Shown: piece after piece, positions 17,273 to 64,000 of the stretch
How the letters are laid out: each line of letters begins with the position of its first letter
How positions within the stretch are numbered: the first letter of the stretch is position 1
Assembly: GCA_902500055.1 (NCBI GenBank)
Contig: GCA_902500055.1_4131.1
DNA: 64,000 nt
From: Escherichia coli
GTDB taxonomy: Bacteria > Pseudomonadota > Gammaproteobacteria > Enterobacterales > Enterobacteriaceae
Reading direction: 5' to 3' (one strand)
The notes under the pieces: generated by a model
Databases searched by the model: none
The model's input: the letters and a program-made list of their open reading frames with translations, nothing else
What the model was told of the DNA's origin: nothing
Made by a program: the position numbers and the translations under genes

Positions 17273-17738
17273 TACCTTCTCCTACAGTATTCTCTACATA
17301 TTCATAATCAAAATAGAAACTACTGGAGTCAATACTTTTGAAATACCACATAATTACAATAACATCCAGTTCTTCTTCATTGTACAACGTACTATTCTGG
17401 AAGTAATACTCTTCACTATCCCACGGACCTTCTAGTACTGAATAAGGAATGATAGTGTCATCAGCATCACTATCTGTGTTGTAGATGGTAATATCTTCAT
17501 TACGGCAATAACTAATGTACTGATTGTACATATGATATTCACAGTTATCACTGTCACCAGTATCAGTGTGCAGTACTAATGTTTCTGCACATACCTCTGA
17601 TTCGTCATAATCATCTCTATCCTTAACGAAGAATTCCGTATCTGATGTTTTGTATACACCTGGTACTGAACCTTCCTGTACCATAATCATGTACTCATGA
17701 ATTTTCTTTGCTTCTTTCAATGCACTTTGTAATGACAT
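17250..17738 (-). CDS. famA subfamily A1 paralog
   Basis: 162 aa; MSLQSALKEAK; core SEEYYFQNSTLY. Confidence 0.65.
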   Translation of the reverse strand: MSLQSALKEAKKIHEYMIMVQEGSVPGVYKTSDTEFFVKDRDDYDESEVCAETLVLHTDTGDSDNCEYHMYNQYISYCRNEDITIYNTDSDADDTIIPYSVLEGPWDSEEYYFQNSTLYNEEELDVIVIMWYFKSIDSSSFYFDYEYVENTVGEGNVITKCS

Positions 17739-17740
17739 TA

Positions 17741-18181
17741 TTATTCCCCTGAAATTAAATACTCACATGATCCCCAGTCAAGAAAGAATGGTTCAAAATT
17801 CAATTCCTTAAAGTACCACAACACAACCAAGGAATCAAGCATTTCTTGGTTAAAAATGAGACTCTGTTGGAAGTAATACTCTTCAGTACCCCACGGGCCA
17901 TCAAGTACTCCGAAGTCAACAGGTGTATTTGATGTGTCAAAAGTAATCTTAGTACCAGGAATATATACCATAAAACTAGTATATTGACTACATGAAGAGT
18001 ACTGTATATTATTGTCTTTATCATGACCCATAAGTAAAATATCATTAGAGTATCTCTTTACTCCAGTGAGGTAATATTCATTCCCATATGCATGTACTTT
18101 ATCAGCATAGAACCCACTTTTTATTTTATCATGGTACTGATGTATTTTGTTGGCTAGTTCTAGTGCTTTTTCTAAACTCAT
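17741..18181 (-). CDS. famA subfamily A1 paralog
   Basis: 146 aa; MSLEKALELANK; core TEEYYFQQSLIF. Confidence 0.65.
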   Translation of the reverse strand: MSLEKALELANKIHQYHDKIKSGFYADKVHAYGNEYYLTGVKRYSNDILLMGHDKDNNIQYSSCSQYTSFMVYIPGTKITFDTSNTPVDFGVLDGPWGTEEYYFQQSLIFNQEMLDSLVVLWYFKELNFEPFFLDWGSCEYLISGE

Positions 18182-18649: not shown

Positions 18650-19144
18650 TCAACCCCTGTTAATACCGTTATCTACAGTTTTCGTTACGTATCTGTAATC
18701 GAAATAGAAGTTCCCAGAACCAATACTTTTAAAGTACCACATAATAACTAATACTTCAAGTACTTCATCATCGTAAACAGTACTTTGTTGGAAGTAATAC
18801 TCTTCACTATCCCACTGACCTTCTAGTACTTCACTCGGAATTATAATGTCATCGGAATCGCAGTCAGTACTGTATATGGTAATATCTGCATCATTAATAT
18901 AGACCATGTACTCATTATGCATATCAATGAAACATTCATAATCATTAGGGTCGGTATCTAGTATGCACGTTTCTGTATCCAGTACGCACGTTTCTGTATC
19001 TGAGCAGTCATTATAAAGGAGGTTATCTGGCACATAATATTGAGTACTTGTGTCTTTGAAAACACCGTAAACTGAACCTTCTTTTGCCATATTCATGTAC
19101 TCATGAATCTTCTTTGCTTTTTCCAATGAACTCTGTAATGTCAT
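18650..19144 (-). CDS. famA subfamily A1 paralog
   Basis: 164 aa; MTLQSSLEKAK; core SEEYYFQQSTVY; internal tandem duplication TETCVLDTETCILDT. Confidence 0.65.
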   Translation of the reverse strand: MTLQSSLEKAKKIHEYMNMAKEGSVYGVFKDTSTQYYVPDNLLYNDCSDTETCVLDTETCILDTDPNDYECFIDMHNEYMVYINDADITIYSTDCDSDDIIIPSEVLEGQWDSEEYYFQQSTVYDDEVLEVLVIMWYFKSIGSGNFYFDYRYVTKTVDNGINRG

Positions 19145-19153
19145 TTTATAATC

Positions 19154-20243: not shown

Positions 20244-20439
20244 CTTAATCTCTACTATAATTAATAAGGTAAACTCCAATATAAGGAGCACGTTCGGCGG
20301 CGGGGTATTTTTTGTTTCAGGAAACATGAACTGTACTCTGAAAAACACAATATAAAACTTTATATTAAACATATACCTTAGCATGTTTTTCAGCGGAAAT
20401 TTTTTTGACCCCCCTGCGGCCTGTCAAAATGAAACGTCT

Positions 20440-54305: not shown

Positions 54306-54493
54306 TACTACATAGACGCGAGAAAGCGGAAACCCCAGGGGGTGCGGAATTACGCCCAAAATTCAAGATATAAAAAAAGGATACACTCCCGCACCCTAGC
54401 AGGCAAACGCACTTTCTCAGTACTGAAATATAGTACCATAGTCCGGCCCAGGATAGCAAGCAAATTAATTAAAATTTTTTTGCTTCCAGGGTA

Positions 54494-59266: not shown

Positions 59267-59452
59267 TTACATATCAATAAGTTTCAGTACTGCTCTGTAC
59301 GTGTACTTAGTTGTTAGTGTTTCTTTTATAGCAGTACTGAAGTAATGTTGTTTGTCCCTTATACTACCGCGTTTGTAGTACCATACATGGGAGTTGTGGG
59401 TGTACTTGTCCCTGTCGGATAGATTTTGGTAATAGTATAATATATGATTCAT
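59267..59452 (-). CDS. famC paralog
   Basis: 61 aa; MNHILYYYQNL...RAVLKLIDM. Confidence 0.5.
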   Translation of the reverse strand: MNHILYYYQNLSDRDKYTHNSHVWYYKRGSIRDKQHYFSTAIKETLTTKYTYRAVLKLIDM

Positions 59453-59652
59453 GGTAATGTAATTAGCCTTATTATGTTAAAGTACTCGGTTCCTGGTACA
59501 CCTTGTAGAATATTATCAACTACATTTTCTTGGTGCAGGATTAATACATTCGGTGCGGTTCTTTTAAGGTTTTTTAAAGTACTGTATTCTTGTTTAAGGA
59601 TGAACTGTACATCTTTAGGGAGAATATCTAAGTAGTACTGGTGTATGTTCAT
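59449..59652 (-). CDS. famC paralog
   Basis: Track ORF trimmed to Met4 (MNIHQYYLDILP...). Confidence 0.5.
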   Translation of the reverse strand: MNIHQYYLDILPKDVQFILKQEYSTLKNLKRTAPNVLILHQENVVDNILQGVPGTEYFNIIRLITLP

Positions 59653-59672
59653 AGTTTTCATATAGTACTCTT

Positions 59673-59858
59673 TTAGAACTTAAAGATGAGGTTCATGATA
59701 GATAAGTACTTAGTTTCAGGAAATTGATGTTCTATTGCATAACGTGTCTCCAGTCTGAAGTCAAATTTATAAAAGGGACTATTCATATCCATAGGTTCAT
59801 TGGGAAATGAATCTCTGTATTGTTTGTGCAGCTTACTACAGTAGAATTCTTTATACAT
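59673..59858 (-). CDS. famC paralog
   Basis: 61 aa; MYKEFYCSKL...IMNLIFKF. Confidence 0.5.
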   Translation of the reverse strand: MYKEFYCSKLHKQYRDSFPNEPMDMNSPFYKFDFRLETRYAIEHQFPETKYLSIMNLIFKF

Positions 59859-59859
59859 A

Positions 59860-60063
59860 TTAGTGCTCGATTAAAAGGGTTAGGATGTAATAGTATTGCA
59901 TACTTTCTACCCCTTGTACAGCATTTCTTATTTTATTATTCCTGTACGAGTTCAAGAGTTTAGGACAATGTTTGAAGTTTATATAATTATTTTGTGTATA
60001 CAGTAGGCTTTCTCGTAGACCTTTTGTTGGTAGTGCATCGATGTAGTACTGTTCAATGTTCAT
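59860..60063 (-). CDS. famC paralog
   Basis: Track ORF trimmed to Met4 (MNIEQYYIDALP...ILTLLIEH). Confidence 0.5.
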   Translation of the reverse strand: MNIEQYYIDALPTKGLRESLLYTQNNYINFKHCPKLLNSYRNNKIRNAVQGVESMQYYYILTLLIEH

Positions 60064-60068
60064 AGTGT

Positions 60069-60296
60069 TCATAGAGCTACCAGTACTAAGATTTTTGATA
60101 ATTGTTTATTGCTATCCCCGCAGATGGTGCTGTGTAAAATACTCACTACAAGGGTATCAAGTGCATTGTTCAGCATAAGGTTACATCCAGTACTGTTATG
60201 TGTTTTTAGCTCTATTAGCCACGAACAATCCGCGAGAAACTTACCGTACTCTAGTTCATTTAGAGTATTAATGTAGTACTTAAGTGTAGCTGTCAT
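60069..60296 (-). CDS. famC-like protein (first gene of array)
   Basis: Track ORF trimmed to Met19 (MTATLKYYINTLNE...). Confidence 0.45.
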   Translation of the reverse strand: MTATLKYYINTLNELEYGKFLADCSWLIELKTHNSTGCNLMLNNALDTLVVSILHSTICGDSNKQLSKILVLVAL

Positions 60297-60398: not shown

Positions 60399-61304
60399 AT
60401 GTTACCTTTTGTTAGAATGTTTGATTATGGGAATGAAGCTCCATTACCAGCCCCAAATGGTGGTATACGAACTCAATTTACCACATCACCAGTACCTTCA
60501 GCACGAAATAACTTTGGTTATACGTATGATGCATCAAGAAATACTGCTTATATATTTGGTGGTATAATGAATACTTCGAACCAGGATAATCAGTTATGGA
60601 GTTTTAATTTAAATTCTAGAATATGGGTACAATTATCATCACCACCAGTATCCACCTATGGAAGTGCATTGTGTGCCTATCAAGGAAAAATATATTTGTT
60701 CGGTGGTTTAGGTGCAGCGAATGTTGCTAATAATAATTTTTATGTATATGACATAAGCTCTGATACATGGACACTGAATAATACAAGTGTTGGCAAACCT
60801 AACCAGGCAGTATATAGTAAGATGATTACTACAGGGGATAAGATATATTTGTGGGGTTCACCGTCTAATACTGCATTATATAGTTATACGCCGAGTACTA
60901 ATACATGGGCATCGTTAGGTACTACTGGGAATACAACAAACAATGGTGGTGGTGATATGTGCACTGATGGTACTTACATATATTTTACAGGACAAGGATC
61001 TACTCCTGCACAAAAATATCACATAGAGAGTGCGGTTTGGTCAAGAATGGCAGCAGTTGGTGGAGCTAACCCTAGTAAGATAATTTACAATAGATATGAC
61101 AAAGGTATATATGCAGTATCTTATGGTGCATTAAATTTATTAAAATATGATGCCGAGCAAAACAAATGGATACCATTAGCTATCAATACAACGTTGAGTA
61201 ATAGTACTGGTGCATTATTTGGCTCTAATAATAGTGCTGAAATATTTTACGTACTTGGTTACGACAACGGGACACGTGTTAATACGCAGTATGTTTTTAA
61301 ATAA
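60399..61304 (+). CDS. famD: Kelch-like beta-propeller protein with conserved MLPFVRMFDYGNEAP N-terminus
   Basis: Start set at ATG after AAAGGAGG; Kelch-like periodicity AYIFGG...LWSF, KIYLFGGLG...DTWT, KIYLWG...NTWA. Confidence 0.6.
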   Translation: MLPFVRMFDYGNEAPLPAPNGGIRTQFTTSPVPSARNNFGYTYDASRNTAYIFGGIMNTSNQDNQLWSFNLNSRIWVQLSSPPVSTYGSALCAYQGKIYLFGGLGAANVANNNFYVYDISSDTWTLNNTSVGKPNQAVYSKMITTGDKIYLWGSPSNTALYSYTPSTNTWASLGTTGNTTNNGGGDMCTDGTYIYFTGQGSTPAQKYHIESAVWSRMAAVGGANPSKIIYNRYDKGIYAVSYGALNLLKYDAEQNKWIPLAINTTLSNSTGALFGSNNSAEIFYVLGYDNGTRVNTQYVFK

Positions 61305-61316
61305 TTTGGAGGAAAT

Positions 61317-62466
61317 ATGTTACCTTTTGTAAGAATGTTTGATTATGGGAATGAAGCACCTACCAACTCTGGGCGTTTTAAAATATATTCCAGTGATTCT
61401 ATGTATCTTCATGATACTTATACTGATAAGTTGTATGCATCTTCTGCGACGAATTGGGGTACTGGTACAGGTGTAGCATCGAGTAAATTTATTCTTTGTG
61501 CGGAGAATGTTAAACGAGTTCTATTGGAAGATAACAGTAGTGATTGTCAATTGTATGAAGAGAAAGGTACTGGAAAAGTTTTTATCACTGGTAACACGAA
61601 GGCATTCACTGGTGTAACTGATAGAAAAACTTTGTGGACGGACTGTACTACGTGGATAACATCAAGTGGTATTAATGTTTCTGATATAAAATACATGAGT
61701 AGTTTTTATGATATGAAGGTGAATTTGATAACAAACGATGGTACATTGTATTGTTGTGGAACTAACAATATATCGAACATATCATCATTTGGTGATGGCA
61801 CAAACATTAATTCTTTTAACACATTCAAAAGAGTAGATACTATAACTTCGGTTAAAAAGGCAGTTGGTAACATTTATTTGCGAGAAGATAATACTTTATG
61901 GGGTTGTGGTTTTAACTATTACTACCAGTTGGGTACTGGTAATCAAACTTCGATTACTGGGGTGACGATGATTTCTTCGGATGTTATAGATTTTGATGTA
62001 AGTTATCAGAGTACATTTTTTTATCAAATCGGATAATAATTTGTACGCATGTGGGAAGCAGTACGGAGCACAATATGGTAATGAATTTGGCACAGGTGGA
62101 ACATCTACTAGTACTGATATTCAATACAAGACTCCTACATTATTGAGTACAGGGGTATATGGTGTATATGCATGTGTTGCTAACATGGCATCACATATTG
62201 TCAAAGCAGATGAAGTTCTATATGCTTCTGGATCGAATGGGTTTGGGCAATTAGGTGTTGGTAATAATAATAATCAGTACTCCTATACTCCTTCATATAC
62301 TTCGTTTAATACTTCGTGTAATTTGGTACGCACTCCATCTGGTTCACTTATACTTACTGACACTTCGAAGTTATATTATTCGGGTGCTTCATTTGTAGTA
62401 ATGGGTGGTAGTGCTGGACAGAACGTTCTTAATTATACCGAAGTCGATATGTCATTTGTGCAGTAA
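61317..62466 (+). pseudogene. famD: RCC1-like repeat protein split by a frameshift in a T7 run
   Basis: ORFs 61317..62036 and 62041..62466 both carry RCC1-like repeats (LYCCGTNN, LWGCGFNYYYQLGTGN; LYACGKQYG, LYASGSNGFGQLGVGN); a 1-nt shift in TTTTTTT at 62016-62022 joins them. Confidence 0.5.
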
Positions 62467-62475
62467 ATTAATATA

Positions 62476-62500
62476 CCAGTACTTGATACTGGCTTTTTTT
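62476..62500 (+). terminator. intrinsic terminator
   Basis: Hairpin CCAGTA-CTTGA-TACTGG followed by TTTTTTT. Confidence 0.6.
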
Positions 62501-62534
62501 GATTAAATATAGTATAATGAATAAAGGAGGAAAT

Positions 62535-63644
62535 ATGTTACCTTTTGTAAGAATGGTTAAGTACGGGAATATTGCACCAGTACCGAAAAAAATAAAGAAA
62601 GTTATAGCAGGATATGATAATTTATATGTACTATATGGTGATGGTTCGCTATATGGTTGTGGAATCAATAACTATCAACAGTTAAATATTGATGGAACTG
62701 CTACACAAAATAATTGGGTACTAATTACCAATGGTGTTAGTAATGCATGGGCTGGTGGATACAATATTTTATATTTGAAAGAAGATAAATTTATAATGCA
62801 CGGAACTAATGTCTCATTAGGTTTAGGAAATACTACAATTCCATTAGGTGGAGTAGATGTAACTTCTTCATTCCCAGATATCTCTAATATTAAAATGATA
62901 TCCATTGGTTTTGATTCAATGCACTATGTTAGTGCTGATGGTACAACTGTATATGGAAGAGGTATGAACACAAATGGTTCTGTTGGTTCAGGTAGTACTT
63001 ACTCACAGAGTACTTTCACTTCAGTACTGAATAATGGAACTAATCAGGTTATTGATATATTTGGTAACGTTAATAATACAGTGCTTCTAACATCGAATGG
63101 TGAGCTTCGAGCATGTGGGACAAGTGCTTATGGTTCTATAGGAAATGAAACTGGTAAGTGGACATCGTTTGGTTTAAAATTATCTGGCACTAAAATAATG
63201 GGTGGTAATGGGTATAGTACGCTTGCATATACAAATTCGGGAATGTACCACTCAGGGTGGCAGTTAAATGGGGAACTAGGAAATGGTTTAGATACTAACG
63301 TACAGGTATATCCATTTCAATTTAACTCTAAAACGATAGATAGCAAGATAGATAAAATTGCCAAATCATCATCTGGGTCATATGTTAACATGTACTCAAC
63401 AACAGAAGGAAAGATATATACGACAGGTTCGTTTGGTAAAAACGGGTCAACTACTGCATTGAATTTGTTCACCAATACATTAACACTTATAAATTACAAT
63501 CCAGATACCGCCTCGTTGTATACGTGCACAAACTTCAGTGTTGTGTATGATGGTAATGAAACTATTGCTGTAAGTGGTAGTCCTACATATGTACCAGGGG
63601 GCGTTGCCGCTAATAGATGGACTACAATTCCATTACCCAAGTAA
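62535..63644 (+). CDS. famD: RCC1-like repeat beta-propeller protein with MLPFVRMVKYGN N-terminus
   Basis: Start at ATG after AAAGGAGG; repeats LYGCGINNYQQLNIDG, VYGRGMNTNGSVGSG, LRACGTSAYGSIGNE, MYHSGWQLNGELGNG. Confidence 0.6.
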   Translation: MLPFVRMVKYGNIAPVPKKIKKVIAGYDNLYVLYGDGSLYGCGINNYQQLNIDGTATQNNWVLITNGVSNAWAGGYNILYLKEDKFIMHGTNVSLGLGNTTIPLGGVDVTSSFPDISNIKMISIGFDSMHYVSADGTTVYGRGMNTNGSVGSGSTYSQSTFTSVLNNGTNQVIDIFGNVNNTVLLTSNGELRACGTSAYGSIGNETGKWTSFGLKLSGTKIMGGNGYSTLAYTNSGMYHSGWQLNGELGNGLDTNVQVYPFQFNSKTIDSKIDKIAKSSSGSYVNMYSTTEGKIYTTGSFGKNGSTTALNLFTNTLTLINYNPDTASLYTCTNFSVVYDGNETIAVSGSPTYVPGGVAANRWTTIPLPK

Positions 63645-63711: not shown

Positions 63712-64000
63712 ATGTTACCTTTTGTTAGAATGTTTGATTATGGGAATATAATCGAAGTTAATAATATAAAGAAAAGTGTTGTTAGTTACACTCTTGAAAT
63801 GTTTCTAATGCAAGATGGCACTGTATATGCACACGGTGAAGATTCAAACTATAATGCGGGTTTAAGTACAAAGTTTGTATCGTTAGGAGCAGTTCAACAA
63901 ATCACAACTGAAGTTGATGACTTATGGTTAGGATCGTTTTCCGTTGTTATTAAAGGTGATAAAATATATGGTTCAGGTTCAACATATGCATTCACGAATT
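63712..64000 (+). CDS. famD: RCC1-like repeat protein, 3' end beyond window
   Basis: Starts MLPFVRMFDYGNIIEV after the conserved cassette (here AAGGAGGG); VYAHGEDSNYNAGL, IYGSGS; open to window end. Confidence 0.5.
   Translation, partial: MLPFVRMFDYGNIIEVNNIKKSVVSYTLEMFLMQDGTVYAHGEDSNYNAGLSTKFVSLGAVQQITTEVDDLWLGSFSVVIKGDKIYGSGSTYAFTN

Follow-up and report, generated by a model that had tools for sequence, protein, structure and literature searches.

A probably genuine one-nucleotide insertion splits an RCC1-like propeller gene in the tandem array of an Asteriusvirus jumbo phage

The run of seven T at 62016-62022 of the window, i.e. the whole 64,000-nucleotide stretch analysed here, is probably a genuine, recent and non-programmed insertion of one nucleotide in a tandem RCC1-like gene of an Asteriusvirus jumbo phage. 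The change from T6 to T7 is of the type made by replication slippage, which would be the likely mechanism. The extra T would shift the frame after Phe235, add the four aberrant codons YQIG and lead into a stop codon at 62034-36, and one presumably dispensable paralog would be inactivated, provided that the truncated product is inactive as expected. The window belongs to the 121Q/PBECO4-type jumbo coliphages (Asteriusvirus); the nearest phage records are 94-98% identical, with none reaching 99%. The phage genome apparently forms a single contig in the assembly from an E. coli isolate project.

The split gene and its reading frames

The disrupted gene and its parts, all on the plus strand, are:
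61317..62466, +, whole disrupted gene, encoding an RCC1-like beta-propeller of 382 aa when intact
61308..61312, +, GGAGG ribosome-binding site, 4 nt 5' of the ATG of the split gene (from the sequence)
61317..62036, +, 5' ORF of 239 aa, composed of 235 native residues and the aberrant tail YQIG; deposited as VVZ33380.1 / WP_210765901.1
62002..62466, +, 3' part of the gene, read in the +1 frame and encoding the remainder of blade 5, both following blades (6-7) and the closing strand
62016..62022, +, T7 homopolymer, site of the 1-nt insertion; T6 (TTT TTT, Phe-Phe) in every relative read
62034..62036, +, premature TAA created by the frameshift (from the sequence and the ORF list)
62041..62466, +, downstream ORF of 141 aa with a TTG start, in the +1 frame; deposited as VVZ33402.1

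The original prediction of an RCC1-like gene interrupted at a T7 homopolymer is confirmed. On inspection of the sequence, the run lies inside the ORF that ends at 62036, with the frame-0 codons aca ttt ttt tat caa atc gga TAA, and both halves match RCC1-type profiles. The +1 frame has no stop from 62002 up to the stop codon at 62464-62466 and overlaps frame 0 by 35 nt (62002-62036), with the T-run within the overlap. Deletion of one T yields an ORF of 1149 nt and 382 aa that lacks internal stops. It reads ...SYQSTFFIKSDNNLYACGK... at the junction and, in a longer view, ...DVSYQSTFFIKSDNNLYACGKQYG..., a normal strand-turn-strand of the repeat. A one-nucleotide change does therefore restore a single protein of about 380 aa, as had been proposed, and relatives with T6 encode 382 aa. 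To restore the frame, one T has to be removed from the window sequence, which amounts to a +1 shift and not to a -1 shift. Alignment with relatives places the single 1-nt insertion exactly in the T-run, which rules out a chance pattern.

The split gene (61317..62466) is the ortholog of 121Q gp248, BF17 QXN76574.1 and PBECO4 AGC34969.1. Its two ORFs are both deposited as 'uncharacterised protein [Escherichia coli]' on a contig of 353,697 nt. The TTG of the 141-aa ORF lies 4 nt past the stop of the first ORF. Little if any of the 141-aa product should be made, because its start is only a TTG with a weak GGA 7 nt upstream. Re-initiation at TTG 62041 is possible, and the resulting piece would lack residues 236-241.

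The T-run in related phages

The ortholog is carried by 28 records of the phage collection and is absent from 6 of the 34 phage records. In the aligned span, each of the 27 full-length matches among the phage records has fewer bases than the window. The deficit is exactly one base in 26 of them; the remaining one, Salmonella phage SD-1_S14, is fragmented by additional deletions, several in number, yet has T6. Read directly, the tract is T6 in 20 of 20 independent sources with 82%-97% nucleotide identity to the window, and neither T5 nor T8 occurs among them. These sources comprise ten phage records (BF17, vB_Ec-M-J, WPEC3, 121Q, SD-1_S14, EJP2, Turkey3, JP4, Ecwhy_1 and fEgEco12), five further NCBI assemblies (one being the assembly record of phage EC22.5-2) and five metagenome contigs. 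In all annotated relatives the gene is a single CDS of 1149 nt.

Besides the window, only the assembly of run ERR3555814 has T7. The exact T7 33-mer has no match in IMG/VR; a flexible pattern (T5-T9) matched only 121Q in IMG/VR and one metagenome contig, with T6. The split gene has no match in the complete RefSeq E. coli genomes. The exact restored sequence of 382 aa is absent from a collection of 15 billion proteins, hence this very allele is not known in a T6 form.

Intact orthologs are 121Q gp248 (AIT14138.1, 'putative DNA condensation protein, RCC1-like'), BF17 QXN76574.1, PBECO4 AGC34969.1 and JP4 CDS0230. Like the window gene, they follow a block of small minus-strand genes of 60-75 aa and precede further RCC1-like paralogs; they have 82-97% nucleotide identity to it, share its N-terminal peptide and have the same 1149 nt once the window loses one T. 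The window differs from them in T7 instead of T6, in the 239-aa and 141-aa ORFs and in a divergent patch of 130 nt.

Many of the orthologs come from single contigs of 345-358 kb in E. coli isolate assemblies. Such complete phage contigs recur, and jumbo phages of the 121Q type are thus sequenced time and again along with E. coli isolates, via a carrier state or contamination.

Assemblies and reads

The Logan contig ERR3555814_358 (2101 nt) is 100% identical to window positions 60405-62505 and contains T7 and both split ORFs. Since a separate pipeline assembles Logan contigs directly from the raw reads, T7 is not the product of one assembler or polishing step. Assembler error, among the causes first suggested, is unlikely given this second assembly and the lack of any comparable homopolymer frameshift elsewhere in the window. 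The Logan contig very probably derives from the same run as the deposited assembly, hence it does not represent independent sequencing, and with a shared run a systematic read error at the T-run would show in both assemblies.

Such a read error, i.e. a phage that truly has T6 and a homopolymer miscall in the reads that both assemblies inherited, is the main alternative. Single-base homopolymer length errors are the commonest consensus errors, and T7 is confined to the window and the assembly of one run. Against this stand the agreement of two assemblers on T7 and the lack of any other comparable coding discrepancy among 109 homopolymers of at least 6 nt and about 210 genes. Furthermore, a Logan contig of 2101 nt at 100% identity points to accurate short reads.

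For this comparison the window was aligned with four annotated relatives (121Q, G17, JP4 and BF17), covering about 210 CDS and about 64.6 kb of coding sequence. The split RCC1-like gene contains the only clean single-base homopolymer frameshift in the middle of a gene of more than 100 aa. Other net frameshifts lie in doubtful annotations of 30-64 aa, at extreme gene ends or where the alignment is poor; in addition, the T-run 54475-54481 differs (T7 versus T6) inside a CDS of 70 aa that is annotated in JP4. Homopolymers of at least 6 nt (n=109) have equal length in every relative in 93 cases. The 15 varying runs besides the RCC1 tract are mostly terminator tails, spacers between ribosome-binding site and start codon, and gene termini, with the exception of those at 20308 and 20409 (in a region rearranged relative to 121Q), the run 54475-54481 and a few unclassified ones. 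An error-prone platform is unlikely, because several comparable coding breaks would then be expected. We infer that the reads are correct and regard a miscall as unlikely.

Reading frame downstream of the T-run

Downstream of the T-run the restored frame has no stop codon and no decay, which means that the frameshift either arose very recently or is not real; an artefact would look the same, and to this extent the observation also favours a read error. Substitutions specific to the window (found in 0/12 relatives) number 23, with 21 of the 23 downstream of the T-run at gene positions 738-863. Those past the shift are mostly at third positions and synonymous in the restored frame, including a double change from TCT to AGT (Ser to Ser). 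As the changes are mostly synonymous and no stop codon occurs, the downstream part was coding until very recently.

These substitutions fall in a mosaic patch:
62049..62180, +, divergent patch of about 130 nt, 81-87% identical to all 28 known orthologs, with fEgEco12 and EJP2 closest

Outside the patch the gene is about 97-99% identical to BF17, with the flanks of the patch at about 99%, and variants inside it are held in common with the fEgEco12 and EJP2 alleles. Judged from these sequences, the patch looks like short-patch recombination, with an unsampled allele as donor in which this stretch was coding, in the restored frame, while it diverged. The patch donor was also considered as the source of T7 and rejected, since T6 is present in both of the nearest alleles, those of fEgEco12 and EJP2. 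The edge of the patch lies about 26 nt downstream of the T-run, and this closeness could point to a more complex origin.

Predicted fold and effect of the truncation

Profile searches find RCC1, RCC1_2 and RCC1-like-domain matches in both halves of the gene. The N-terminal fragment exceeds the curated cut-offs of PF13540 (25.8 bits, cut-off 22) and PF00415 (24.5 bits, cut-off 21.7); both fragments match PF25390 (RLD) below the whole-domain cut-off, as expected for half a domain. The structure model is an AlphaFold2 prediction of the ortholog P0002, 92% identical, and not of the split window product. It has a mean pLDDT of 90.3 and consists of seven four-stranded blades and a C-terminal closing strand; residues 1-18, the N-terminal peptide shared in the array, are disordered (pLDDT below 50). 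In Foldseek searches with this model, the top PDB matches are UVR8, the HERC2 RLD, RPGR and RCC1 (E 1e-19 to 1e-13), with TM-scores of about 0.55-0.74. According to profiles and model, these proteins and the phage ortholog are alike RCC1-like seven-bladed propellers; the phage protein differs in being only 12-18% identical to them, in its association with the virion and in its short disordered N-terminal peptide. The name 'regulator of chromosome condensation' appears to derive from homology alone, and Ran-GEF or chromatin functions would find no support in it.

The native sequence ends with Phe235, inside the strand 232-237 that forms the third strand of blade 5 in the P0002 model. Going by this model, the product of 239 aa would lack two and a half blades and the closing strand and is most likely unable to fold; no closed propeller is expected, because blades 6-7 and the ring-closing C-terminal strand are missing.

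The tandem array

The split gene is part of an array of about ten tandem genes for RCC1-like beta-propellers in this phage of the 121Q type. Its surroundings in the window are:
60399-61304, +, Kelch-type propeller gene, with its stop codon at 61302-61304
61317..61361, +, conserved N-terminal peptide MLPFVRMFDYGNEAP of the split gene, disordered in the model
62476..62500, +, terminator-like hairpin CCAGTACTTGATACTGG and T-run, after the split gene
62535-63644, +, RCC1-like paralog of 369 aa
63651-63676, the same terminator-like hairpin CCAGTACTTGATACTGG and T-run, after the next paralog
63712, +, start of a further RCC1-type paralog

A spacer of 12 nt connects the Kelch gene with the split gene, which has its own GGAGG; this junction contains no terminator-like site. 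The same hairpin follows successive paralogs, and each RCC1-like paralog therefore appears to be its own transcription unit or an attenuated unit. The T-tail of the hairpin differs in length among relatives.

Four adjacent genes begin with the start peptide of about 15 residues, MLPFVRMFDYGNEAP or a close variant (60399-60443, 61317-61361, 62535-62579 and 63712-63756). The common start MLPFVRM(F/V)(D/K)YGN is encoded with a nearly identical 21-mer, of which the window holds 4 copies, with 0 expected by chance. One N-terminal peptide thus occurs on two different propeller types, the first gene being of the Kelch type and the others of the RCC1 type. A leader common to two folds suggests a common docking or virion-incorporation signal.

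The content of the array varies among genomes. GCA_917206675.1 has no ortholog of the split gene; the Kelch gene is present in BF17 and vB_Ec-M-J and absent in 121Q, JP4 and WPEC3. In GCA_050939295.1 (JBPBSK010000029.1, 4179-5299) a different RCC1-like paralog is split into ORFs of 177 aa and 149 aa. Its break is a 1-nt deletion (TTT to TT) that changes ATCATTTGG into ATCATTGG, and the counterpart in GCA_917206675.1 has 373 aa. Since the ortholog is missing in some genomes, the Kelch gene is variable and another paralog is broken in GCA_050939295.1, loss of one array member is plausible, and the split gene is plausibly dispensable. The loss would be tolerated because the array is redundant and variable, with some relatives lacking the ortholog. 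In phage phAPEC6 eleven members of the RCC1-like family are found, several of which were detected in virions by mass spectrometry; the link to DNA condensation made by its authors was suggested solely by the domain name (PMC7247149).

Other features of the window

The palindrome AGTACT is present in 272 copies in the 64-kb window, the next palindromic hexamer being TTTAAA with 81. CAGTACT has 258 matches on both strands, compared with 7.2 +/- 2.6 in shuffled sequences. AGTACT is densest between 36000 and 62000 and sparse between 20000 and 28000, with an extended consensus that is roughly T-rich, C, AGTACT, G, A/T-rich. It occurs inside ORFs in all three codon phases as well as in intergenic terminator-like hairpins, and is similarly dense in relatives (2.9-7.2 per kb). 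The motif is a candidate DNA-level signal and could act as a promoter element, bind a protein or be the target of a modification; a literature search on AGTACT in jumbo phages returned nothing relevant.

The minus strand holds about 55 tightly packed same-strand genes of 100-230 aa in 1-29000 and dozens of genes of 60-75 aa in 29000-60300, several of them visibly paralogous (e.g. ORFs of 61-70 aa in 59449-60072). In every relative all these small genes are annotated as 'hypothetical'. One pair of paralogs (17282-17744 and 18673-19149) shares about 70% identity.

Switching, recoding and the status of the split gene

A second alternative holds that the tract is a phase-variable T6/T7 switch of a virion-associated paralog, or that slippage of RNA polymerase or ribosome on U7 still provides part of the protein at full length. 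We consider this improbable. UUU U does let tRNA-Phe re-pair perfectly in the +1 frame, the downstream frame looks selected, and a second paralog is broken in another genome; RCC1-like paralogs, virion-associated by mass spectrometry in phAPEC6 (PMC7247149), would furthermore be an apt target of switching. However, the synonymous pattern is explained by a patch recombined from an intact allele, and the other broken paralog (GCA_050939295.1) is not split at a long homopolymer. Tract length is not polymorphic as a switch would require, since 20 sources have T6, one genome has T7 and neither T5 nor T8 occurs. Moreover, efficient transcriptional slippage needs about 8-9 or more A/T; at seven T the run is short for this and for efficient switching. 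T6 itself is just Phe-Phe in genes in which TTT makes up 84% of the Phe codons. Conservation of T6 as selection for a slippery tract was likewise considered and rejected, since at this codon usage Phe-Phe gives T6 by default. That the T-run acts as an on/off switch at low rate, or that the T7 allele yields some full-length protein by U7 slippage, is very improbable; if true, a phage population would mix particles with and without this paralog.

Programmed +1 ribosomal frameshifting or programmed transcriptional slippage as the normal mode of expression is scarcely credible: it has only the local geometry in its favour, a slippery run (UUU UUU U, on which tRNA-Phe re-pairs one base downstream) in a 35-nt overlap of two frames, but T6 and one uninterrupted gene in 20 of 20 sources, from 82% to 97% nucleotide identity, exclude a conserved site of either kind, the frame-0 A-site codon UAU is neither a stop nor obviously rare, no Shine-Dalgarno-like element lies 5' of the run, the RNA around and downstream of the T-run folds into only a weak hairpin (z = -1.85; 10 of 200 shuffles fold as well), and a run of 7 here and 6 in all relatives is not the long conserved run of transcriptional slippage. 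Of the three explanations proposed at the outset, the genuine frameshift is thus the best reading, while programmed slippage fails on the 20 T6 relatives, the short run and the missing stimulator.

The T7 allele is most likely an ordinary strain-specific frameshift in a known, annotated and redundant phage gene. Its biological weight is small and mainly a point of annotation: VVZ33380.1 and VVZ33402.1 are halves of one frameshifted gene, to be flagged as a pseudogene or frameshifted CDS and not as two proteins. The case adds one example of RCC1-like array members of 121Q-type jumbo phages that can be lost without obvious harm, and fits the variable content of the array. The function of the virion-associated propellers and of their common N-terminal peptide is the more interesting question.

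Known recoding sites, such as those of E. coli prfB (+1), Thermus dnaX, IS elements and Shigella mxiE (slippage), likewise combine a slippery homopolymer with a short overlap of two frames. Unlike at these sites, the T-run of the window is short, not conserved and not accompanied by a stimulator, and its relatives have a single frame. Receptor-binding genes of Campylobacter phages possess hypermutable long poly-G tracts that vary within populations and between isolates. There too the length of a homopolymer decides whether a virion-associated protein is made; the site in the window differs from these tracts in being invariantly T6 in 20 sources, with one T7 exception.
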